Shown one piece after another: positions 18,782-29,440 of a stretch of 29,440 nt of DNA. Each line of letters opens with the position of its first letter. The stretch's first letter is position 1. This DNA is from a virus. Its lineage: Duplodnaviria > Heunggongvirae > Uroviricota > Caudoviricetes. Made by a program: the position numbers and the translations under genes. The notes below the pieces were generated by a model, which was given only the letters and a program-made list of their open reading frames with translations, had not been told where the DNA came from and searched no databases. The stretch spans positions 1-29,440 of the IMG/VR virus record IMGVR_UViG_3300045988_117814; one strand, 5' to 3'.

Positions 18782-21256
18782 ATGAGACAGGAATGTATAC
18801 AAGCGGTTCAGCAGGCGGCGCAGCGCACGTTAACGGCGCGAGAAATACAGAACATTGAAGACCGCATTTATCGAAATATGCGCTCCATTGCTCGTGATGA
18901 CCCGATGTCGTGGAGACAACTTTCCGAATCAGAGCGGCTATATCGAGCAGCACAATTGGCATCTGAAGAATTACAGCGAGAAGCGGCATTAAAGAAACGT
19001 CGTGTGGCTCTCACTATAGCCGCGCGTCAGAGATTGGATAAGTTTATCAATAGCTATCAAGGGGCTGATGGGAAACTTGGCGCTCTTAACCGTACTATTG
19101 CTTTTAATGCAGACGGTAAATCGAACTTCCTCTCTGTTGAGTCCAGAACAAAAGCCACTCGTGATTATGCATTGAGTCAATTGCAGGAGGCATTTGAAGC
19201 AGTAGATCCTCGCTTTTTTGGCCTGTTTGAAGATGAAGCGGGCGTGCGTGATCTGGTATATGAAATGCGAGGGCAAAATACTGGCAATTCTAAAGCAAGA
19301 AAAGGTGCTAAGGCGTGGAGAGAAGTGACAGAGCTACTGCGACGCCGGTTTAATGATGCTGGTGGGGACATTGGCTATCTCGAAAACTGGGGGATCCCTC
19401 AACATCATTCTATGGAAAAGGTTGGGGCGGTATCAAAGGATAAGTGGGTTAGCGATGTTATAGGTAAGCTGGATCGCAAATATTATATCCGAGCCGATGG
19501 ACAACTGATGAACGATGCCGAGTTGTCTGCATTTCTTGGAGAGGCTTATAACACGATCGCTACTGGTGGGCTGAATAAGCTTACTGATACCGGAATGCGA
19601 ATTTCCGGCTCACGTGCTAACCGTGGTAATGCATCACGACAGATACATTTCAAAGATGCAGATTCCTATCTGCAATATCAGCAACTTTATGGCGATCGCT
19701 CTCTATGGGAAATCATGGTCGGTCACTTGGAAGGTATCAGTAAAGATATTGCACTGGTGGAAACATATGGTCCAAACCCCGATCATGTTTTCCGCTCCCT
19801 TCTTGATCAGGTTAAGGCAGAAACGGCAACAGCTAACCCGAGTAAAACCGGTAGCGTCGAGCGTCTGGCGAACAAAACAGAGAACCTGTACAACTTTATT
19901 TCCGGAAAAACACAGCCTGTAGCGAATCCGCACATCGCGCGATGGTCTGACAATATCCGCAACTGGCTGGTTGCCAGCAGGCTCGGATCCGCGTTGCTGT
20001 CATCGTTCTCTGATCTTGGAACCATGTATCTGTCTGCGAAGGTTACCAACCTTCCAATGAACCAGTTATTCCGCAACCAGCTTGAAGCTATGGACCCAAC
20101 GAACCGTACAGAACTTGCGCGGGCGCGCCGCGCTGGTCTGGCGATGGAATCTCTACTTGGCAGCGTTAACCGCTGGGCGATGGATAATATGGGGCCGTCT
20201 GTGTCTCGTTGGGCGGCAACGGCGGTAATGCGTGCCAGTGGGCTTACAGCATGGTCAGATGCGCACAAGCGCGCCTATGGCGTAACCATGATGGGAAGCC
20301 TGGGAGAAGTAGTGTCACGGACACCAGACCTTCGTAGCCTCGATGACTCTGATTTTCGTATCCTGAAAAGCAAAGGGATTACTGACACAGACTGGAGCGT
20401 GTGGAAACTGGCGCAACAGGAGGACTGGGGGAACGGTAATAATACGATGCTGACACCGGAAAGCATTATGCGTATCCCTGATTCAGCAGTTAAACATCTT
20501 GGTGAGCCTGAACGCGTGAAATTTGAGGCAATGCGTAAACTGCTCGGTGCCGTAACTGAAGAAGTTGATATGGCTGTTATTACACCTGGCGCACGTGAGC
20601 AACTGATAACCGGTTCTGGTATTCAGCGTGGGACATGGAAAGGTGAATTAACGAGAAGTGTTTTCCTGTTTAAATCGTTCCCTATCTCGGTGGTTATGCG
20701 TCACTGGTCACGCGCTATGGGTATGCCGTCTGCTGGTGGGCGTGCGGCATATATTGCGACGTTTATTGCCAGTACGACCATTCTTGGCGCTTTGTCGCAG
20801 CAACTTAACGACCTTGCGTCTGGTCGTAATCCTCGCGAGATGACAGGAGAAGATGCTGCTAAATTTTGGCTTGGTGCTCTACTGAAAGGTGGTGGTCTTG
20901 GCCTTTACGGTGACTTTTTATTGTCAGATCACACTAGGTACGGAAGCGGCGCGCTGGCGTCGATGCTTGGCCCGGTAGCTGGTCTGGTTGATGACGTAGT
21001 GAAGATTGCTCAGGGCATACCGTTAAATGCTGTGGAAGGGAAGAATGAGCAGACTGGTGGTGATCTGGTTAAGCTGGGGAAAGGTCTGATGCCAGGTGCG
21101 AATCTCTGGTACTTAAAGGCGGCTCTCGATCACATGATCTTTAACCAGATGCAGGAGTATTTTTCACCAGGTTATTTGCGTAAAATGGAGCAACGTTCGA
21201 AGAAAGAGTTTAACCAGACATACTGGTGGCGACCTCAGGATGTCACTCCGCAATAA
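18782..21256 (+). CDS. Large internal virion / ejection protein
   Basis: 824 aa; SD GAGAGG; last large gene of the same-strand late operon, which ends at the terminator at 21426-21450. Confidence 0.65.
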   Translation: MRQECIQAVQQAAQRTLTAREIQNIEDRIYRNMRSIARDDPMSWRQLSESERLYRAAQLASEELQREAALKKRRVALTIAARQRLDKFINSYQGADGKLGALNRTIAFNADGKSNFLSVESRTKATRDYALSQLQEAFEAVDPRFFGLFEDEAGVRDLVYEMRGQNTGNSKARKGAKAWREVTELLRRRFNDAGGDIGYLENWGIPQHHSMEKVGAVSKDKWVSDVIGKLDRKYYIRADGQLMNDAELSAFLGEAYNTIATGGLNKLTDTGMRISGSRANRGNASRQIHFKDADSYLQYQQLYGDRSLWEIMVGHLEGISKDIALVETYGPNPDHVFRSLLDQVKAETATANPSKTGSVERLANKTENLYNFISGKTQPVANPHIARWSDNIRNWLVASRLGSALLSSFSDLGTMYLSAKVTNLPMNQLFRNQLEAMDPTNRTELARARRAGLAMESLLGSVNRWAMDNMGPSVSRWAATAVMRASGLTAWSDAHKRAYGVTMMGSLGEVVSRTPDLRSLDDSDFRILKSKGITDTDWSVWKLAQQEDWGNGNNTMLTPESIMRIPDSAVKHLGEPERVKFEAMRKLLGAVTEEVDMAVITPGAREQLITGSGIQRGTWKGELTRSVFLFKSFPISVVMRHWSRAMGMPSAGGRAAYIATFIASTTILGALSQQLNDLASGRNPREMTGEDAAKFWLGALLKGGGLGLYGDFLLSDHTRYGSGALASMLGPVAGLVDDVVKIAQGIPLNAVEGKNEQTGGDLVKLGKGLMPGANLWYLKAALDHMIFNQMQEYFSPGYLRKMEQRSKKEFNQTYWWRPQDVTPQ

Positions 21257-21265
21257 GGATGAGAA

Positions 21266-21406
21266 ATGATTGCTTTTATTCTTGTTGTGTTTGCTCTTGT
21301 TGCACTTGGCGTTATGAACCGTAAATGTATCATTGGTGATGGTGAATTTGCTGTTGCAGTTGTTTTGATATTATCTGGTGTAGCAGGGTACATAGGTTTG
21401 TCATAA
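21266..21406 (+). CDS. Small hydrophobic protein, 46 aa (below the ORF-track size cutoff)
   Basis: ATG at 21266 behind AAGGATGAG; translation MIAFILVVFALVALGVMNRKCIIGDGEFAVAVVLILSGVAGYIGLS; TAA at 21404-21406; terminator immediately after. Confidence 0.4.
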   Translation: MIAFILVVFALVALGVMNRKCIIGDGEFAVAVVLILSGVAGYIGLS

Positions 21407-21425
21407 CGTAAGCGTTACATGTCAC

Positions 21426-21450
21426 AGGCCGCTCTTGCGGCCTTTTCTTT
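21426..21450 (+). terminator. Rho-independent terminator ending the structural operon
   Basis: AGGCCGC-tctt-GCGGCCT hairpin followed by TTTCTTT. Confidence 0.65.
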
Positions 21451-21706
21451 ATGTGGTTTGTTTTCGTAATTGTTCGGCACAATAGTCGAGATGTGTTTGC
21501 AGATCCCGCATAGACATCTGTGAGCTGGTGACGTAGTTAATCAGTGCAGTCAGTTCGGCAAGTGGGCCATCGACATTAAATCCATCCTTATCGAGATCCC
21601 GGAGTAATTTCATCAAGTGCGATCCCTCCACCAGTGACCTGACGCCTCCCGGCGTGTGAATCCTTTCGGTAAATCCGTCTTCCAGTGGATAGTGATACTG
21701 CTGCAT
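21449..21706 (-). CDS. LexA-controlled small protein; candidate SOS-inducible antirepressor or regulator
   Basis: First ATG at 21706-21704 behind GGAGAAGATAAG on the - strand (the ORF-track start at 21724 is TTG); a near-consensus LexA box lies 22-37 nt upstream. Confidence 0.6.
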   Translation of the reverse strand: MQQYHYPLEDGFTERIHTPGGVRSLVEGSHLMKLLRDLDKDGFNVDGPLAELTALINYVTSSQMSMRDLQTHLDYCAEQLRKQTT

Positions 21707-21725
21707 CTTATCTTCTCCATGCAAT

Positions 21726-21745
21726 AACTGTATATTTATACAGTA
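21726..21745. promoter_or_regulatory. LexA (SOS) box
   Basis: AACTGTATATTTATACAGTA: CTGT-N8-ACAG with an AT-rich spacer, 18 of 20 matches to the consensus TACTGTATATATATACAGTA. Confidence 0.7.
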
Positions 21746-21901
21746 TCAAATAATTTGTTTGCTATCCAGCACGTTTTGCAAATCACCTGAAAGGTAATAT
21801 CTGTTTGTATTCATGGTCTATCTATCTATATATGGTTTTTCGGGTAATAGAATAATCGGATATGCGGCGCAACGGGTGCTGCGACTATCTGGAGATTTAA
21901 C

Positions 21902-24331
21902 ATGACGGTCTCAACCGAAGTTAACCACAACGAATACACCGGTAACGGCGTTACGACATCATTCCCTTATACCTTTAGGGTTTTCAATAAATCTGATTTA
22001 GTAGTGCAGGTGATTGACCTTGACGAGAATATCACTGTGCTGGATCTTGATACTGATTACACAGTCACTGGTGCGGGAGGGTATAACGGTGGCAATGTAA
22101 TTCTGTCGAAGGCACTGGCTAATGGTTATCAGATTTCCATATTGCGAGAACTATCGGTTACTCAGGAAACAGATCTTAGAAACCAGGGTAAGTTTTTTGC
22201 TGAGGTGCACGAAGACGCGTTTGATAAGCTAACGATGCTGATCCAGCAGGTAAGAAGTTGGTTTTCACTTGCTCTTCGTAAGCCATCTTTTGTGTCGAAT
22301 TATTATGACGCTATTAACAACTACATCAGAAATCTGCGAGACCCTGTGCGCCCACAGGATGCGGCAACTAAAAATTATGTCGATAAACTTGCTAATACAA
22401 ATCTAGGTCGTACTCTTAGAACGCCTGAGCCAATACCAAGTTTGCCTGATGCTGAGAATCGTAAAAACAAAGTGGTAGCGATGGATGACAATGGTAATCC
22501 TATTATGGTCCTTCCACAGTCTGGATCTGCATCCGATGTAATGATTCAGCTAGCAGCAAGTGATGGCTTAAAACTTATTGGCAATTGTGCTTCCATTTCT
22601 AATTTACGCAATATAGAACCAACAAATTTACAGCAAAGAATATATGTATTAGAGCATACTTTAGGCTCTGGTATTGGAGGTGGGTATTTTTATTATGATA
22701 GCACTGATTTAACAACAATTGATGATGATGGAATGATAATTGTGACGCCTGGTGGAAAGCGTTGGAAAAGAATCTGCAATGAAGTGTATGCTGATTATTA
22801 CGGAATTGTTCCTGATGGAGTAACGGATTGTCATGATAAATTGAACAAAGCACTGCAAGCGGCAAAAATGGCAACGGTGAAAGAGCTTATTCTTTCTGAA
22901 GGTACTTACGGGATTAACTCTGCACTGAAAGTACCATCTTACGTTAGATTGTGTGGGGTGGGGAAATTTAAGACCGTTATTCTAGCACTACCAACAATGC
23001 CGATAATTGAAAACTGTATTCAGAACGAGCTTTATGAATACAGGGTATTCAGGACAAACTACGATACTTCTATCCACATAGAAGACTTATGTGTAGATGC
23101 TAACAATCGAGCAAGAAATCCGTCAGAAACATGGATGGATGCCACACAGGGGACTACTATTTTATTTTCTACTGTCAGCCACAGTTCCATCAAAAACGTT
23201 TACTGTAAGCGTGGTTTGCAGCATGGTATAGATATTTGTGCTGGGTATTATTTCGATGATGGGAATATTAATAATAATGCAGTTGGTGGTAGCTATGACA
23301 TTGTTGTTGAAGACACTTTTGTTCAAAACAGTCAACTTGACGATCTCATTACAACGCATAATAGCAGTGATATTGTAATTAACCGCTGCCGAGTATGGAA
23401 CGATGACCCTGATATGGTATGGACAGGGAATCAGCATGGTATTGAAATTGATGAAGGAAGTTATAATGTTACCGTGATGGATTGTTATGCGGATGGGGTA
23501 ATGACTGGATTTCAGCAGAAGGGCCACTCAACAACAATGCCCGCAAGATGTGTTAAATTTTATAGATGTTATGCAAAAAATTGTGTTCATGGATTCCAAA
23601 TTGAGCACATTAATACAGCATCAATACCATCGGGGCGGCATCAAAATGCCAGGTATTCCGTTATAGCAAGTTGTACGGTTGAAAACGCAAACAACTCAAA
23701 ATACACATCAAACCATGCAAGGGTTGTTGAAATTTTAGGGTTCTACGGTATTTATATAAATGAATTAAGGGTTATCGGAGGTGCTGGTAATATATATATT
23801 AGCGGCGGAGCAAGATATATAAACATAGATGGCATTTTTTGGGATGGTGGATACTCAGGAGCTTCCGATACTGATGCCGAGGGATTGGTTCATATAGAAA
23901 CTGATTCAAGCTGTGATGACTACACGATAAATAACTTTATCTGTGAAGATAGCGTAAGTGTTCCATTGATTAGAGATTTGACAGACTCAAGAGTTCAAAG
24001 AGGAATAAGTAATATTAGAGGTTATGGTAAAAACGCAACAATACCAATGATAGCCATTGTCCCAAATGATGATGATAATATATCAAACATATCAACAGCT
24101 GGATCATGGCTTTGTGCTATTAATGATATGGCCAGAGCTCCAGGGACAGGAACATATAGTCAGAATGTTTCTTTTATACATGGTATTTCATTGATAAGCG
24201 GTTCAGGAACTCCTTACGGAGTTATTAATGGTAAGCCAGGAGGATTATATGTTGACAAAAACACAGGATACTTCTATCAATGCACAAGCGCAGGAAGTGG
24301 AGGATGGAAGGGGTTGGTAAGTAATCCTTAA
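21902..24331 (+). CDS. Tailspike (receptor-binding, probable O-antigen depolymerase)
   Basis: 809 aa; N-terminal particle-binding-type domain (EYTGNGVTTSFPYTF...) of the kind seen in many podovirus tailspikes, followed by an AT-rich body with beta-helix-like repeats; last structural gene. Confidence 0.8.
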   Translation: MTVSTEVNHNEYTGNGVTTSFPYTFRVFNKSDLVVQVIDLDENITVLDLDTDYTVTGAGGYNGGNVILSKALANGYQISILRELSVTQETDLRNQGKFFAEVHEDAFDKLTMLIQQVRSWFSLALRKPSFVSNYYDAINNYIRNLRDPVRPQDAATKNYVDKLANTNLGRTLRTPEPIPSLPDAENRKNKVVAMDDNGNPIMVLPQSGSASDVMIQLAASDGLKLIGNCASISNLRNIEPTNLQQRIYVLEHTLGSGIGGGYFYYDSTDLTTIDDDGMIIVTPGGKRWKRICNEVYADYYGIVPDGVTDCHDKLNKALQAAKMATVKELILSEGTYGINSALKVPSYVRLCGVGKFKTVILALPTMPIIENCIQNELYEYRVFRTNYDTSIHIEDLCVDANNRARNPSETWMDATQGTTILFSTVSHSSIKNVYCKRGLQHGIDICAGYYFDDGNINNNAVGGSYDIVVEDTFVQNSQLDDLITTHNSSDIVINRCRVWNDDPDMVWTGNQHGIEIDEGSYNVTVMDCYADGVMTGFQQKGHSTTMPARCVKFYRCYAKNCVHGFQIEHINTASIPSGRHQNARYSVIASCTVENANNSKYTSNHARVVEILGFYGIYINELRVIGGAGNIYISGGARYINIDGIFWDGGYSGASDTDAEGLVHIETDSSCDDYTINNFICEDSVSVPLIRDLTDSRVQRGISNIRGYGKNATIPMIAIVPNDDDNISNISTAGSWLCAINDMARAPGTGTYSQNVSFIHGISLISGSGTPYGVINGKPGGLYVDKNTGYFYQCTSAGSGGWKGLVSNP

Positions 24332-24379
24332 TAAATTTAATGCCGATAGATTGTTTAAGTATCCGTCGGCATTTTTTGT

Positions 24380-25381
24380 TTATTTTAGTTTTCTTAGAAT
24401 ATTTCTGCTTGGCTTTTCTACTAAATGAAATGTTAATATGGAAAACATCAGTGTAGATATAACCATAACAAACACATCATTTATATAACTAACATTTAAC
24501 CATTCAGTTATTGCATTCACTTCAAATATAAAATGCCTTTGTATCATCAGGTGCGTAAGGTAAATTGAAAAAGACAACTCCCCCAAATAATGAATAGGTT
24601 TTGTTGATAGTAACCATCCTGTTATTCCAGTGCTATAATAAAGCGATGATATATATAATCCGGTCAAAATAACAAAAACAATATCCATTCCTTTTGTTAG
24701 TAAACACGCTATTACTAAAGCCGCCAAAATATCTTGAGTATATGCAATAACATTAAATGTGTGTTTGTATTTATCAAATAAAACATAGCAACAACAACCT
24801 ATAGTGAAACCACAAACACCTCTCATTATTGAAGGGATTCCGCTATATATATCAAGTGGCCCGCTACTACCAGGGTTGTCAATTGTTGTAATATAAAACA
24901 ACATTGACATTGATGTGTAAATTATTATGAAACATAACCATTTCTTATCGGTTAATAAGAATATTAGAGGCGGAAATATTAAATACGCAATTAATTCAAC
25001 GCTAACAGACCATGATGCACCAACCATTCCATTATTAAATAAATTTTGCCACATCATAAAATTTATTATGAGATTTTGAGTTGATGGTGGCGATGATTGA
25101 TTTACTTGAATAATTATTGTTAATAATAAAACAAATAAATATAATGGATATATTCTTGAAAATCTATGCCAAATAAATTTTCCAAATTCACTAACAGATA
25201 TTTCTTGTGTGAAATTTTTAGAGTATACCATACACATTATAAATCCGCTTAATACGAAAAAAAGATCTACTGCTAGATATCCGTTCCATAGAAAAGGTAT
25301 TTTTGCGTTTGTAAAGTGATAAAGAACTACGTAAATTGCAGCTATTCCTCTAACACCTGTTAGTGATTTTATTTCTTTCAT
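24380..25381 (-). CDS. oac: Acyltransferase family 3 integral membrane protein; probable O-antigen O-acetyltransferase (lysogenic conversion)
   Basis: 333 aa, multi-pass membrane protein with hallmark motifs SLTGVRGIAAIYVVLYHF and VDLFFVLSGF; very AT-rich; convergent with the tailspike. Confidence 0.8.
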   Translation of the reverse strand: MKEIKSLTGVRGIAAIYVVLYHFTNAKIPFLWNGYLAVDLFFVLSGFIMCMVYSKNFTQEISVSEFGKFIWHRFSRIYPLYLFVLLLTIIIQVNQSSPPSTQNLIINFMMWQNLFNNGMVGASWSVSVELIAYLIFPPLIFLLTDKKWLCFIIIYTSMSMLFYITTIDNPGSSGPLDIYSGIPSIMRGVCGFTIGCCCYVLFDKYKHTFNVIAYTQDILAALVIACLLTKGMDIVFVILTGLYISSLYYSTGITGWLLSTKPIHYLGELSFSIYLTHLMIQRHFIFEVNAITEWLNVSYINDVFVMVISTLMFSILTFHLVEKPSRNILRKLK

Positions 25382-25616
25382 ATGTATTTATCTATATAAC
25401 AAATTAAAGTCAATGGATGCCAAACATCATATCATATTTGCAGCATTCTAGTCAGCACTTCACACATCATCCAACGGGGAGAGTCAAATGCTTTGCTGAT
25501 CTATTTCATTGAGATTAGTAGTGGACAAAGGTTTGCATCTGATTGCAAGGCGTTGTGCTATTAGCAGCGTATGCTTTTTAAGCGTTAAAATAAACCACCA
25601 CTAATCCATATAAGGT

Positions 25617-25630
25617 TCGCTGTGTATAAT
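25617..25630 (+). promoter_or_regulatory. Candidate extended -10 promoter for the lysis cassette
   Basis: TGTGTATAAT (TGn-TATAAT) about 20-35 nt upstream of the first lysis-cassette ORF. Confidence 0.35.
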
Positions 25631-25647
25631 GAACTCACTAGCTAAGA

Positions 25648-26082
25648 GTGTCATTATGCTCAAAAATGGTGGTTTTTATGTCAATACAGTTAACCAATGA
25701 ATCTTTAAATCAGTGGCTTAGCGTTGGTTCTTTAGTGTCGGTGATAGCAGGAGTTCCTCCAGAGGTCGCTTTGGGATCTTTGGCTGGTGCGGTAATTTTT
25801 GTTACCTCTGCAGTAGAATACCCAATCCGTCGTCGTGTTCTTCTGTCGATGCTCAGCTTCCTCTGCGGCCTTCTCTTTTACAAACCAGCAGCATCAATTC
25901 TTATCGGCATAGCCAGCCTGATCCCTACCATCACGCAGGACTCATTCGAGAAAGGGATTGCATTTTCTACAGGTGCGTTCGTGTCGGCAATTGTCGCCGT
26001 TCGTATTGGTATATGGCTCTATCATCGTTCTGATAATCCACGCGAGTTGATTCCTGGGAGAAAAGACGATGGTAACGCATGA
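25648..26082 (+). CDS. Multi-pass membrane protein heading the lysis cassette (holin-associated or other membrane function)
   Basis: Four or five hydrophobic helices. Start uncertain: GTG at 25648, ATG at 25666 or 25678. Confidence 0.5.
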   Translation: MSLCSKMVVFMSIQLTNESLNQWLSVGSLVSVIAGVPPEVALGSLAGAVIFVTSAVEYPIRRRVLLSMLSFLCGLLFYKPAASILIGIASLIPTITQDSFEKGIAFSTGAFVSAIVAVRIGIWLYHRSDNPRELIPGRKDDGNA

Positions 26083-26377
26083 GATTTTTTTGCTTATCAC
26101 CAATGCAGTTATTTGTACTGGCATAGCTATTCGTGTTGTTACTTTCCGGCGCAATGGATCTCAACACCGACGATGGGGTGGCTGGCTTGCTTATTTCCTG
26201 ATTGTTGCTGCGGCTAGTATTCCGGTTCGTGTCGCCTATGCAATCTGGTTCAGCATGCCAATGGCAGTGGATTTATCTGAGGTCATTATCAACGTAGTCA
26301 TGCTTGCTGCGGTTATTAAAACACGCGGTAACGTCGTTCAGATTTTCAAATTAGCGAGGTCTAAACATGGAGATTAA
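26069..26377 (+). CDS. Holin (three transmembrane segments, class I-like)
   Basis: ATG behind GGGAGAAAAG; three hydrophobic helices and a charged C-terminus; immediately upstream of the endolysin. Confidence 0.6.
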   Translation: MVTHEIFLLITNAVICTGIAIRVVTFRRNGSQHRRWGGWLAYFLIVAAASIPVRVAYAIWFSMPMAVDLSEVIINVVMLAAVIKTRGNVVQIFKLARSKHGD

Positions 26378-26996
26378 ACAATTTCAGCGAGCTGCTGGTA
26401 TCAGCGAGTCGCTGGCCGACCGCTGGTTCTCGCATATAATTTCTGCGATGAAAGAGTTTGGTATCAGCAAAACCGAAGATCAGGCAATGTTTATTGCTCA
26501 GGTCGGGCATGAGTCTGTGGGCTTCACTCGGTTGCAGGAGAATTTCAACTACAGCGTCAGCGGACTGGTTAACTTCGTTCGGGCTGGGCGTCTCACTCAG
26601 GGACAGGCCAACGTATTGGGGCGACGCGCAGGCGAACCACCATTGTCACTTGAGCGCCAGCGCGCGATCGCAAATCTGGTGTACAGCAAACGCATGGGGA
26701 ACAATGCTCCCGGCGATGGCTGGAATTACCGTGGGCGCGGACTTATCCAGATTACCGGTTTGAATAACTATCGTGACTGTGGAAACGGTCTGAAGGTTGA
26801 CCTGCTGGAGAGTCCTGAACTGCTGGCTCAGGACGAATATGCGGCTCGTAGCGCGGCGTGGTTTTTCTCCAGCAAAGGCTGCATGAAGTATACCGGCGAT
26901 ATTGCACGTGTAACTCTGATTATCAATGGTGGCCGGAACGGCATCGACGACAGGCGTGAGCGATACATCACTGCCAGTAAGGTGCTGGCGATATGA
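26367..26996 (+). CDS. Endolysin, glycoside hydrolase family 19 (chitinase-like lysozyme)
   Basis: Motifs FIAQVGHESVGF and YRGRGLIQITGLNNY typical of GH19-type phage endolysins; start overlaps the holin end. Confidence 0.8.
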   Translation: MEIKQFQRAAGISESLADRWFSHIISAMKEFGISKTEDQAMFIAQVGHESVGFTRLQENFNYSVSGLVNFVRAGRLTQGQANVLGRRAGEPPLSLERQRAIANLVYSKRMGNNAPGDGWNYRGRGLIQITGLNNYRDCGNGLKVDLLESPELLAQDEYAARSAAWFFSSKGCMKYTGDIARVTLIINGGRNGIDDRRERYITASKVLAI

Positions 26997-27475
26997 TCTT
27001 GGCATTCGTAAAAGCATACTGGAAACAGTTGGTTATCGTGGCGATGCTTGCTGTTTTGACTCTATCAGGAGTTGTTGCCTGGAATGTGCATGGTAGCCGA
27101 CAGTACGACGCCGGGTATGCACAGGCGAAGGAAGAGCGCAAAGCCGAAGATGAGAAAGTTCGTCAGCACTACGAACAGGAGAAAGCGATCAATGAACGTA
27201 AAGCGCAACAGAGGATCGACCAGGCGCGCAATGATGCTCTTGATGCTGCCGCTCGCGCTGGCCGGTTGCAGCAACAGCTCGTTGCCATCCGTGAGCAACT
27301 CAGGCAGTATAACGCCATTGTCGGCGCTGGGACGTCAGCCGCAGACACCGGAGTTTTGCTTGCCGACGTGCTCAGCAAATCTCTCGAGAGAAACAGACAA
27401 CTGGCAGAGTATGCTGACCGGGCAGCCGAAGCCGGAAGAGTCTGTGAAAAACAGTACGACACCCTGACCAGATAG
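26993..27475 (+). CDS. Rz: Rz-type inner-membrane spanin (i-spanin)
   Basis: N-terminal TM helix (LVIVAMLAVLTLSGVVAW) followed by a long charged coiled coil; ATGA overlap with the endolysin. Confidence 0.8.
   Translation: MILAFVKAYWKQLVIVAMLAVLTLSGVVAWNVHGSRQYDAGYAQAKEERKAEDEKVRQHYEQEKAINERKAQQRIDQARNDALDAAARAGRLQQQLVAIREQLRQYNAIVGAGTSAADTGVLLADVLSKSLERNRQLAEYADRAAEAGRVCEKQYDTLTR
27192..27467 (+). CDS. Rz1: Rz1-type outer-membrane lipoprotein spanin (o-spanin), embedded in the +1 frame of Rz
   Basis: Basic n-region, hydrophobic core and lipobox (MNVKRNRGSTRRAMMLLMLPLALAGC), then a Pro/Ser-rich periplasmic part; alternative ATG at 27231. Confidence 0.65.
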   Translation: MNVKRNRGSTRRAMMLLMLPLALAGCSNSSLPSVSNSGSITPLSALGRQPQTPEFCLPTCSANLSRETDNWQSMLTGQPKPEESVKNSTTP

Positions 27476-27556
27476 CATGGCATTTTTCATGGTACTGATT
27501 TCCGGTGACGGTATATAAAACGGTATGAGAAAAATGAAGTTTTGGAAAAATGTTAT

Positions 27557-27600
27557 CACTCAATTGGTTATGGTTGTCGTAAATAATTGAGTGGGAATGA
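27557..27600. other. Probable attR junction: inverted repeat overlapping a remnant of the guaA 3' end
   Basis: Inverted repeat CACTCAATT-N19-AATTGAGTG (27557-27593); ATT GAG TGG GAA TGA (27586-27600) encodes ...IEWE-stop but is preceded by an in-frame TAA. Confidence 0.4.
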
Positions 27601-27624
27601 TTTGACCCTGCACTATGAATGAAC

Positions 27625-27656
27625 AAAACCCTCTGTTACTACAGAGGGTTTTTTAT
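27625..27656. terminator. Bidirectional rho-independent terminator (chromosomal, between guaA remnant and yfgI)
   Basis: AAAACCCTCTGT-tact-ACAGAGGGTTTT hairpin flanked by an A-run and a T-run. Confidence 0.7.
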
Positions 27657-27692
27657 CTTCAAGAATTATAGGATTGAAGTTACTAACATCGA

Positions 27693-28232
27693 TTAATTAA
27701 ACCAGCTGTCCGATTTGTTCTCTTCTGCTTTGCCCACGCTTTTCATCAGATCGCGACCGCCTTCAGTCATATTTCTGTTGGCGTCAGCTTCAGATTGCAC
27801 CACATCGGTTTGCGCAGCTTTGTGCTTCAGTTCCTGATCGATAAATTCGTTTTCTCGCTTAACGCGGGCTTCTTCTTTCGCCAGCGCCAGTTTTTGTTTC
27901 TGAATCTCTAAGCTGCGTAGCTCATCTTCATAACTTTGATCGCGTTTTTTGTCCGCAGAGGCTTCGGCGTCCAGTTTATCCTGACGAGCTTTCTTATTTG
28001 CCGCTGCCGTTGCCGCTCTTTTGTTAGCGGCGGCCTGGGCATTTGCGCGACGTTGCTTCTCTTGCTGGATTTCCCTGTTGCGCTCCGCGACCCATTCGTC
28101 ATGCTGCCTTTGCTCTTCATTTTTACCTTGCTGTTCCGCTTCTGCGACAGCAGAGAGTTGATCCTGCAATGATGAGGCGATAGCCGGATAGCTTAAGGAG
28201 GCTAAGATGGCGCAAAGAAAAACTTTCTTCAT
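27693..28232 (-). CDS. yfgI: Chromosomal secreted/periplasmic protein, YfgI-like
   Basis: 179 aa; signal peptide (MKKVFLCAILASLSYPAIA) then a charged coiled coil; size and neighbour order match the E. coli yfgG-yfgH-yfgI locus as I recall it. Confidence 0.65.
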   Translation of the reverse strand: MKKVFLCAILASLSYPAIASSLQDQLSAVAEAEQQGKNEEQRQHDEWVAERNREIQQEKQRRANAQAAANKRAATAAANKKARQDKLDAEASADKKRDQSYEDELRSLEIQKQKLALAKEEARVKRENEFIDQELKHKAAQTDVVQSEADANRNMTEGGRDLMKSVGKAEENKSDSWFN

Positions 28233-28247
28233 GACTCCTCCTGATTA

Positions 28248-28766
28248 TTAGCTCTTTTCAGGACATTTGGTATTTGGCTGAATACGCGTTTCGTTATACG
28301 TCGTGGTAATAACAACGGCTAAACCTGTCGTAAACTGGCACTCTTTACCCACCTGGGTAGAGGTATACACTTTGGTGCCTTCCTTATAGGTTAAAGAAAC
28401 ACCTTCCACTAAGGTTTTATCATTCACCATAGAACCCGCTGCCGCGCCTACAGCTCCGCCGCCAACTGCACCTGCCGTCGTTCCGGAATTGCTGCCAGAC
28501 CCGACGTTGTGGCCGATAACACCGCCAGCGACTGCGCCAATAAGCGCGCCGAAGGCTTGTGCGTTCCGTTTATTTTGGGAGTTGTCTACGGCAACTTTTG
28601 CGGGAAGAATGGAAATAATATTAACGGTTTTAGTTTCTTGTTTGGTATTCAGTTGATCGGTTTGATAAACATCGGCGGCATGATCGTCAGCATTTGACTG
28701 GCATCCTGCCAGAGTGAATGACGCTAACATTGCTACAGGCAGAAGACATTTTTTAAATTTCATCAC
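28248..28766 (-). CDS. yfgH: Outer-membrane lipoprotein with a glycine-zipper segment, YfgH-like
   Basis: 172 aa; lipobox LAGC; Gly-rich stretch GALIGAVAGGVIGHNVGSG...GAVGGGAVGAAAG. Confidence 0.7.
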   Translation of the reverse strand: MMKFKKCLLPVAMLASFTLAGCQSNADDHAADVYQTDQLNTKQETKTVNIISILPAKVAVDNSQNKRNAQAFGALIGAVAGGVIGHNVGSGSNSGTTAGAVGGGAVGAAAGSMVNDKTLVEGVSLTYKEGTKVYTSTQVGKECQFTTGLAVVITTTYNETRIQPNTKCPEKS

Positions 28767-29078
28767 TATTCCTTGTTATACACATTACGAAAAATAAGAC
28801 ATTTAAGATCATCAAAAGAGGAAAGTAAATGTATTGCGTATAAAGGGATAGATTAAATTTATTAAAATTCACGCAGGGAATGATTTATAAAAATATATCA
28901 TTACAACATATATATATTAATTTTATATTTATTTCGCAGCCAAACAGGATAAACATCAGTCAGGACAAAGACGTAAAATTTAAGATGAAAGAATATCTGC
29001 CGCTTTGATAATCCCAAAGAGCAAAAGCATCCGACAGCGAAGTGCCGTTATGTTCTGTGAAAGTGGAGAAGGTAACCG

Positions 29079-29270
29079 CTAACGTTGTACCGGTGATTCG
29101 ACGGAGAGTGTGGATTGCTGAGCTTCTTTTTTGCTCTGATGGTGCTGCCAGGCACCGACGGACGAGTAGATAAAACGGCCAAAGAAGAAGATAAAGCTGA
29201 TGAGCAGTACGATACGGGTCATGCGACTGTTAAATCGGTGTCGTTTTCGCATACTGGTTGCCTGACTCAC
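29079..29270 (-). CDS. yfgG: Small membrane protein, YfgG-like
   Basis: 63 aa with a single hydrophobic helix (IVLLISFIFFFGRFIY); GTG start at 29270 (first ATG at 29252). Confidence 0.6.
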   Translation of the reverse strand: MSQATSMRKRHRFNSRMTRIVLLISFIFFFGRFIYSSVGAWQHHQSKKEAQQSTLSVESPVQR

Positions 29271-29440
29271 AAAAGGTTCCTTGAAGTATGTCCCACGCTG
29301 TGGACGGTACTTACATTAAGGCACAACAGGACAAAATGGTCAATTCTTCGTTATGTAAAAAAGCGTCAGTGGATACATATTTTAATGTTATGGAAGTTAA
29401 TTTAATTATTTACAATGATGATGTAATAATGATGAATTAA

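Follow-up and report, generated by a model that had tools for sequence, protein, structure and literature searches.

In this work we analysed an acyltransferase gene carried by a 29,440-nucleotide stretch of viral DNA (IMG/VR record IMGVR_UViG_3300045988_117814, Caudoviricetes; positions 1 to 29,440, hereafter called the window). The gene encodes a membrane protein of the acyltransferase-3 (AT3) family and lies tail to tail with a phage tailspike gene. By analogy with characterised phage enzymes, we think it likely that the prophage acetylates the O-antigen used as receptor, so that tailspikes of its own type are blocked, resulting in serotype conversion and superinfection exclusion. The acyltransferase and the receptor-binding domain (RBD) of the tailspike are inherited as a pair, on different phage backbones and in different host genera, and divergence in one is accompanied by divergence in the other.

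Results

An intact AT3 gene convergent with the tailspike

The first-pass annotation, made by a model from the sequence letters, had reported a 333-residue open reading frame (ORF) with AT3 motifs and suggested confirming the family with the PF01757 hidden Markov model. Running that check bore the assignment out: PF01757 (Acyl_transf_3; IPR002656) matches with 90.4 bits against a cut-off of 31, over residues 5-317 of the protein and positions 2-324 of the 326 in the profile. It is the sole domain of the protein, which has no SGNH domain, and the best PHROG match is phrog_3333, 'O-acetyltransferase' (1.3e-44). The quoted motifs are present, and their conservation was read from alignments with 13 and with 47 homologs. 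VRGIAA...YH corresponds to R11-X10-H22, invariant in the homologs and in the Oac proteins of phages Sf6 and phiV10, while VDLFFVLSGF occupies residues 38-47, with F41, F42, L44, S45 and G46 invariant (F-F-x-L-S-G). Also invariant are W124, E129 and an RXXR motif, R73-F-S-R76, in register with R73 and R76 of Sf6 Oac. The R/K-X10-H motif in the first transmembrane helix (TM1) is essential in OafA and OafB (PMC9558356), and R73 and R76, in the RXXR motif of the first cytoplasmic loop, are critical in Sf6 Oac (PMC3467182, PMC9558356). In total, 29 residues, all catalytic motifs among them, do not vary in any of the 48 homologs, whose identity goes as low as 28%.

A structural model obtained with AlphaFold2 from the 48-sequence alignment (pLDDT 92.7, pTM 0.91) contains only helices, about 10 of them long; the hydropathy scan gave 8 peak windows in six separate regions. 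Searching the PDB by single sequence and by profile yielded no true match, and in a Foldseek search with the model the only significant PDB match was human HGSNAT (prob 1.00, TMq 0.54). Profile and motifs confirm the protein as a member of the AT3 family, for which the model predicts a polytopic fold of about 10 transmembrane helices.

The gene is under constraint in spite of its composition (A 0.34, T 0.37, G 0.16, C 0.13), which would place a stop, on average, at about every 12th codon. At this composition, 333 codons free of stops have a probability of 4e-13, and the longest run among 1000 shuffles was 121 codons. Since the stop-free run far exceeds both the shuffles and the compositional expectation, the ORF is not a product of chance. 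In comparison with its Salmonella homolog, dN (nonsynonymous divergence) is 0.058 and dS (synonymous divergence) 0.27, giving a dN/dS of 0.21. Several database entries for this protein (clusters P0001 and P0002) are partial or only 285 residues long, starting at M49. We discarded this short form as a real protein: it would lack R11, H22 and FFxLSG, which are invariant across the clade. Most likely, gene callers picked the wrong start codon in this very AT-rich DNA, because TM1 with R11/H22 would be lost together with FFxLSG.

As the first-pass annotation had also noted, the gene is convergent with that of the 809-residue tailspike (21902..24331, + strand), and the two stop codons are 48 bp apart. 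Its G+C content had likewise been described as far below that of the phage backbone, and the values agree: 0.29, with 0.21 at third codon positions (GC3), against 0.505 in the first 21 kb of the window. The amino-acid composition of a membrane protein was ruled out as the mere reason for the low G+C, since GC3 is 0.455 in the single backbone structural gene used for comparison. Arginine is encoded by AGA or AGG in all 7 arginine codons of the acyltransferase gene, in 17 of 24 in the RBD (22547-24331) and in 33 of 238 in six backbone structural genes. The window also contains a phage tRNA-Arg (4774-4850, - strand; anticodon TCT, reading AGA), which may help to translate the low-G+C cassette described below.

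A 2.9-kb cassette shared with Salmonella prophages

The low-G+C DNA is not restricted to the acyltransferase gene. The homology with phiV10-type backbones stops at 22581 and restarts at 25606, and the interval between them is occupied by a cassette 83.3% identical at the nucleotide level to P22-like prophages and prophage remnants of Salmonella enterica (L003, L006 and L007). Within it lie the RBD, the spacer and the acyltransferase gene with 178 bp of its 5' flank (Table 1). Therefore, the separate origin proposed by the first-pass annotation holds as far as the foreign character of the DNA is concerned, but the foreign segment is not the gene alone, as it includes the RBD of the tailspike.

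Identity to Salmonella along the cassette is mosaic, ranging from 61 to 98%. The best-kept stretch (24075-24700, 95-98%) runs from the 3' end of the tailspike gene through the spacer into the acyltransferase gene, of which it covers the 3' third, and thus the tailspike/acyltransferase junction was inherited as a unit. When the cassette is compared with L003, dS differs three-fold between the acyltransferase gene (0.27) and the RBD (0.91). This difference, together with the mosaic identity, indicates either further recombination inside the cassette or a strong compositional constraint on the AT-rich gene.

The cassette is rare. Five other E. coli contigs carry it unchanged, and one IMG/VR contig carries it with 99% identity. 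A megablast search with a 1.7-kb region as query found it in none of 50,697 phage records or 5,426 complete genomes of E. coli. Assemblies with the cassette are GCA_041344215.1 and GCA_012529275.1 in E. coli, and GCA_017944985.1, GCA_050564265.1, GCA_006453955.1, GCA_050232995.1 and GCA_002060875.1 in Salmonella. An identical protein is encoded by a few assemblies of E. coli and by metagenomic contigs (14 cluster members), and S. enterica proteins, subsp. diarizonae among them, are 86-89% identical to it.

Table 1. Features of the recognition and modification region, in window coordinates
Feature	Position	Strand	Description
Tailspike N-terminal particle anchor	21902..22581	+	Uetakevirus backbone, outside the cassette; DNA match to phiV10 ends at 22581
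Tailspike receptor-binding part (RBD)	22640..24331	+	About residues 247-809 at the DNA level; protein similarity from residue 215
Cassette (RBD, terminator, acyltransferase gene, promoter-like region)	22640..25559	.	Single colinear 2.92-kb match to Salmonella
Spacer hairpin and T-run	24339..24379 (hairpin 24339-24373)	.	Between the convergent stop codons
Acyltransferase gene (putative O-antigen O-acetylase)	24380..25381	-	333-residue ORF, ATG start; AT3-only, integral-membrane
Acyltransferase 5' region	25382..25559	-	Part of the cassette; sigma-70-like promoter candidate at 25455..25426

The tailspike itself is a hybrid protein. Its anchor is 72% identical to residues 1-326 of the phiV10 tail fiber, and nothing past that point is alike. 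Residues 215-809 are in turn 78% identical to residues 116-710 of the P22-type tailspike of Salmonella prophages. The RBD (G+C 0.38, dN/dS 0.18) matches PF12708 over residues 300-548 of the tailspike, a pectate-lyase-like beta-helix, and is probably polysaccharide-degrading. Judging from these sequence comparisons, it was acquired jointly with the acyltransferase.

The spacer between both genes folds into a hairpin of -16.9 kcal/mol (z = -5.45), and none of 200 shuffles was equally stable. It is probably the terminator of the tailspike/late transcript and possibly also ends the transcript of the acyltransferase. On the other side, 45 bp 5' of the acyltransferase ATG, the candidate promoter reads CTGACT-18-TATGAT with an extended -10 TG; both hexamers are kept in the Salmonella cassette, and from its sequence we infer that this element could drive the gene. 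Hairpin and conserved promoter-like element fit an independently expressed moron. The sequence before the ATG (25382-25415) reads TTGACTTTAATTTGTTATATAGATAAATACAT-ATG and is near-identical in Salmonella; it is conceivable that the 5' untranslated region is very short or that the transcript is leaderless. Phase variation of the Dam/OxyR type, as in gtr and oafB, was considered and found unsupported, as the 180 bp upstream of the gene contain a single GATC. A scan with Rfam detected no structured RNA family in 21000-27700. A second terminator-like hairpin with T-run lies at the right boundary of the cassette (25550-25580, + strand), just 5' of the first holin-like gene.

Co-inheritance and co-divergence of acyltransferase and RBD

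We defined a subclade of the homologs as those members with at least about 35% AT3 identity and readable downstream sequence (n = 14). In this set, 13 genes are intact (6 found in assemblies and 7 in IMG/VR), and each of them has a convergent tailspike gene as neighbour. They are distributed over three backbone types; IMG/VR contigs and assembly loci may in some cases represent the same phage. In the IMG/VR set, each of the 7 assessable contigs with at least 34.6% identity carries a convergent ORF of at least 664 residues ending near the acyltransferase stop, with an anchor of either Uetake type or PF18668 type. Under about 30% AT3 identity, the association with tailspikes in IMG/VR becomes sporadic.

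The genomic settings are diverse. In E. coli, a gene with 41% AT3 identity (P0019) lies between int and the tailspike of a P22-like prophage. In Enterobacter hormaechei (P0016, 37%) the homolog belongs to a Uetake-like prophage and uses the same slot as in the window; this Enterobacter prophage has only the tailspike anchor in common with the window tailspike (60%). Two further genes, from Scandinavium (P0008, 46%) and from a metagenome (P0009, 44%), adjoin tailspikes with a PF18668 N-terminus. The 14th member (P0014, 44%), also in a Uetake-like prophage, is found in the same slot, truncated by an insertion sequence (IS) that displaced the tailspike. At this locus (L025:6001-7916), the homolog is cut to 245 residues by an IS with an rve transposase in place of the tailspike 3' end, which is one example of decay of the module. 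Two proteins of about 370 residues with 34% (P0043) and 35% (P0035) AT3 identity are encoded by ordinary chromosomal genes.

Irrespective of the backbone, AT3 and RBD identities to the window fall together (99%/99.8%, 89%/78% and 46%/33%), and at AT3 identities of 44% or lower no RBD similarity was detected. The anchor domain tracks the backbone instead: Uetake-like phages with an acyltransferase of just 37% identity have anchors that are 60-76% identical. The sample is small and was not phylogenetically corrected. Co-divergence of acyltransferase and RBD is expected if both products act on the same glycan. The earlier suggestion that the prophage modifies the receptor of its own tailspike thus gains support, as far as sequence comparison allows, from co-inheritance and co-divergence of the two parts.

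The prophage and its neighbourhood

The window is the late-gene half and right end of a phiV10/epsilon15-like (Uetakevirus) E. coli prophage, because it matches Uetakeviruses on the left and the yfgI region of E. coli on the right. Its first 20 kb are about 98% identical at the nucleotide level to phiV10, O157 typing phages 9 and 10, PAS61, ZX5 and phiv142-3, and every one of the 5,426 complete E. coli genomes has a match to its right end (27450-29440), at yfgI/yfgH/yfgG. Similarity to phiV10, and to contigs assembled in attP permutation, ends at about 27602, which marks the phage/host junction, with yfgI/yfgH/yfgG next. The integrase must be at the opposite end of the prophage because none is present at the junction end. 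Beyond the acyltransferase gene come Phage_holin_8, Phage_holin_3_7, a GH19 endolysin and a DUF2514 spanin, in the order and orientations of phiV10.

Two Logan contigs of the same phage, with an identical cassette (L009, ERR3332767_222; L011, ERR13195393_25193) have the integrase directly after the spanin gene, a circular/attP permutation. Because they were assembled in this way, we think that the prophage excises or replicates in those samples. Upstream of the tailspike, the interval 21257-21901, which follows the gene of an 824-residue virion protein, holds only an epsilon15 gp19-like ORF (21449..21724, - strand), and the phiV10 counterpart (L001:5346-6996) holds a Bro-N antirepressor-like gene and small ORFs. 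From this comparison, the interval seems to be a second variable spot.

Discussion

Proposed mechanism and points against it

In the mechanism that we propose, the lysogen would make, from the gene's own promoter, an AT3-only inner-membrane enzyme of about 10 helices. By analogy with Sf6 Oac, phiV10 Oac and HGSNAT, acetyl-CoA would be bound on the cytoplasmic face through R11-X10-H22 and R73xxR76. From there the acetyl group would cross the membrane and be transferred, on the periplasmic side, to a hydroxyl of a sugar in the O-antigen repeat unit. Once acetylated, the O-antigen would be neither bound nor cleaved by the beta-helix tailspike encoded immediately upstream, so the same phage, and others with that tailspike type, would fail to adsorb to the lysogen. 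Its gene came with the RBD, in one low-G+C cassette also circulating in Salmonella P22-like prophages.

Several observations weigh against O-antigen acetylation by this gene. At the family level, the NCBIfam scan returned a single match, to SucT, with 22 bits, far under the cut-off of 1275 bits. AT3 enzymes also act on capsule, enterobacterial common antigen (ECA), peptidoglycan, Nod factors and antibiotics, and may transfer succinyl or longer-chain acyl groups (PMC9558356). Similarity to the characterised enzymes is low: BLASTP against phiV10 Oac detected none (E = 2), with 14% identity in the multiple alignment, and identity to Sf6 Oac is 20%, with a pairwise E of 7e-7. Orthology to a characterised member of the phage AT3-only O-acetylase class was not found, so the functional assignment rests on family, synteny and linkage. 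This class is one of function and position and is not monophyletic, and therefore the failed orthology lowers the certainty about the substrate, not about the mechanism. A search among sequenced phages for one with the same RBD found none, the best matches being appendage proteins of Bacillus and Staphylococcus phages (26% identity). A search for serovar or serogroup names among the cluster members returned only 'Escherichia coli', 'Salmonella enterica' and one 'subsp. diarizonae'. As for expression, no Shine-Dalgarno sequence is visible 5' of the ATG, and the promoter consensus scan gave a number of sites not above the shuffle expectation. DNA of 29% G+C is moreover a typical target of H-NS, hence the level of expression is uncertain.

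Alternative explanations

A different acceptor would be the most direct alternative. The acylated glycan could be a group 1/4 or O-antigen capsule, colanic acid, ECA, as for WecH, or the lipopolysaccharide (LPS) core, with the tailspike either targeting that polymer or being functionally unconnected. Many glycans are served by AT3 proteins (PMC9558356), putative acetyltransferases of Klebsiella prophages are associated with capsule type (PMC13123978), the best phage tblastn matches of the window protein are in Klebsiella phages (33.7%) and a pectate-lyase-fold tailspike may be a capsule depolymerase. We nevertheless regard this explanation as unlikely. In Lederberg- and Uetakeviruses of E. coli and Salmonella, the single receptor-binding protein (RBP) tracks the O-serogroup of the host, and the gene behind it has been described as one for O-antigen modification (PMC10408124). 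Both characterised genes in such a slot, phiV10 oac and Sf6 oac, act on the O-antigen (PMC11854483, PMC9558356). The close joint inheritance of gene and RBD also speaks for a common target.

It is also conceivable, and in our opinion rather improbable, that the O-antigen is indeed acetylated but that the selected benefit is another: immune or serum evasion, colonisation fitness, defence against unrelated O-antigen-dependent phages, or progeny not being trapped on debris. Prophage genes modifying the O-antigen have been linked to host competitiveness in the case of Kapi1 (PMC8787464), and gtrC of BTP1 to O-antigen length and immune interactions (PMC4413052). Co-divergence with the phage's own RBD would be expected, though, if the modification is matched to that RBD, and in both tested analogues the modification blocks the carrying phage itself (PMC11854483, PMC9558356). 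Self-exclusion and these other benefits are not mutually exclusive, and the computed data discriminate none of them. Least probable of all is a passenger role, in which the gene, silent or in decay, was merely carried along by the RBD. The extremely low G+C, with likely H-NS silencing, and the lack of an obvious Shine-Dalgarno sequence would agree with it, as would the IS-truncated homolog and the several 285-residue or partial database entries. It is difficult to reconcile with an ORF kept intact against so frequent predicted stops, with purifying selection at a dS of 0.27, with the invariant residues among the 48 homologs, with a conserved upstream region and with a confident, well-packed model.

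Implications

An O-antigen modifying gene behind the tailspike is common in enterobacterial temperate podoviruses, and phiV10 and Sf6 are textbook cases. Exclusion by receptor acetylation is already well known from these two phages, and our results support the window gene as an uncharacterised further example. If it acts as we propose, strains with the cassette would confound both the prediction of serogroups in silico from prophage tailspikes and serotyping from O-antigen gene clusters, and lysogens would escape phage-based detection or therapy that depends on this type of tailspike. It is an open question how an AT3-only enzyme selects its acceptor when no SGNH partner is present (PMC9558356), and this clean and rare RBD/acetylase pair could be used to address it.

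Beyond this, we see an even chance that the RBD and the receptor-masking enzyme form one mobile two-gene 'recognise-and-mask' cassette with a shared terminator and its own promoter. It would move as a unit between unrelated podovirus lineages (Uetakevirus, P22-like Lederbergvirus and the PF18668-tailspike type) and between Salmonella and E. coli. If so, a single recombination event would give a temperate phage a new host range and the matching self-exclusion, and the E. coli and Salmonella hosts would display the same or a very similar O-antigen. RBD swapping and modification genes 'behind the RBP' have been noted in the literature (PMC10408124). In the papers that we could read, we found no statement that RBD and modifier are co-transferred and co-diverge. 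Co-transfer and co-divergence would be a modest and testable generalisation on the joint evolution of host range and superinfection exclusion.

Comparison with known systems

The structural match to HGSNAT (PDB 8vlv, 8vly, 8vlg) concerns a human lysosomal transmembrane acetyl-CoA:alpha-glucosaminide N-acetyltransferase, which takes cytosolic acetyl-CoA and acetylates a sugar across the membrane. This chemistry would fit, by analogy, the mechanism generally proposed for AT3-only enzymes (PMC9558356). HGSNAT differs from the window protein in sequence (14-16% identity), length (about 500-540 residues), N- instead of O-acetylation and eukaryotic origin, and on the basis of the model we consider it a mechanistic analogue and not a family assignment.

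Fusions of AT3 and SGNH domains (Salmonella OafA and OafB, and the 618-residue 'O-antigen acetylase' of PAS61) have in common with the window protein the AT3 domain and R/K-X10-H. The PAS61 fusion (L002:5977-7833; 27.7% identity) uses the same post-tailspike Uetakevirus slot but is co-oriented with the tailspike, and the TL-2011b and PAS61 genes are 26-28% identical to the window protein. This slot accordingly takes O-antigen modifiers of different architecture, AT3-only genes in antisense (phiV10 and the window) and an AT3-SGNH gene in sense (PAS61). In epsilon15 it is used for inhibitors of acetylation (PMC9558356).

phiV10, also a Uetakevirus, is the closest relative in terms of backbone, about 98% identical at the nucleotide level over the structural genes. 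Its gene order is tail fiber (+), oac (-), membrane protein, holin, endolysin and spanin, and the window gene has the same slot and orientation. phiV10 Oac (PhiV10p26, YP_512280.1) is likewise an AT3-only PF01757 protein of similar length (338 vs 333 residues) and gene composition (G+C 0.31 vs 0.29), annotated with host O-antigen acetylation and superinfection immunity. Expressed alone, oac modified the O157 antigen and abolished phiV10 binding and plaques (PMC11854483, citing Perry et al. 2009; PMC9558356). The RBD of the phiV10 tailspike, on the contrary, is unrelated to that of the window, and therefore a glycan other than O157 is expected for the latter. As both RBD and acyltransferase are unlike those of phiV10 and the anchor is shared, the sequences point to a non-orthologous replacement of the whole RBD and acetylase unit.

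Sf6 provides the parallel in layout. The first-pass annotation had compared the size of the window protein with that of the Sf6 O-antigen acetylase, and Sf6 Oac (Sf6p15, NP_958191.1) has exactly the same 333 residues. Its tailspike (+) is followed by an annotated terminator and by oac (-) with its own promoter, convergent as in the window. R11/H22, S52-G53, R73, R76, P79 and W141 (in the WT/WS motif) of Sf6 Oac are in register with the window protein. Several of these residues, including S-G, P79 and W, are critical by mutagenesis (PMC3467182). Conservation does not extend to R75 (Ser in the window protein), FPV282-284 and D333 of the Sf6 enzyme. In Sf6, which is P22-like, oac lies between tailspike and int, while the window gene stands between the tailspike and the Uetakevirus lysis genes. 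Acetylation by Sf6 Oac blocks the endorhamnosidase of the Sf6 tailspike (PMC9558356), which is the kind of effect that we propose for the window enzyme.

Finally, the P22-like prophages of S. enterica (P0002-P0005; loci L003-L007) carry the nearest counterpart of the pair, with 89% identity in the acyltransferase, 78% in the RBD and the same 48-bp spacer. Their tailspike begins with the P22 head-binding domain (PF09008), where that of the window has the Uetakevirus anchor. The Salmonella pair lies between the integrase and the rest of the P22-like prophage, the conversion slot of Sf6 and P22, and some loci are int-acyltransferase-tailspike remnants adjoining pgtE. In Salmonella the uncharacterised gene is annotated merely as 'acyltransferase family protein'.

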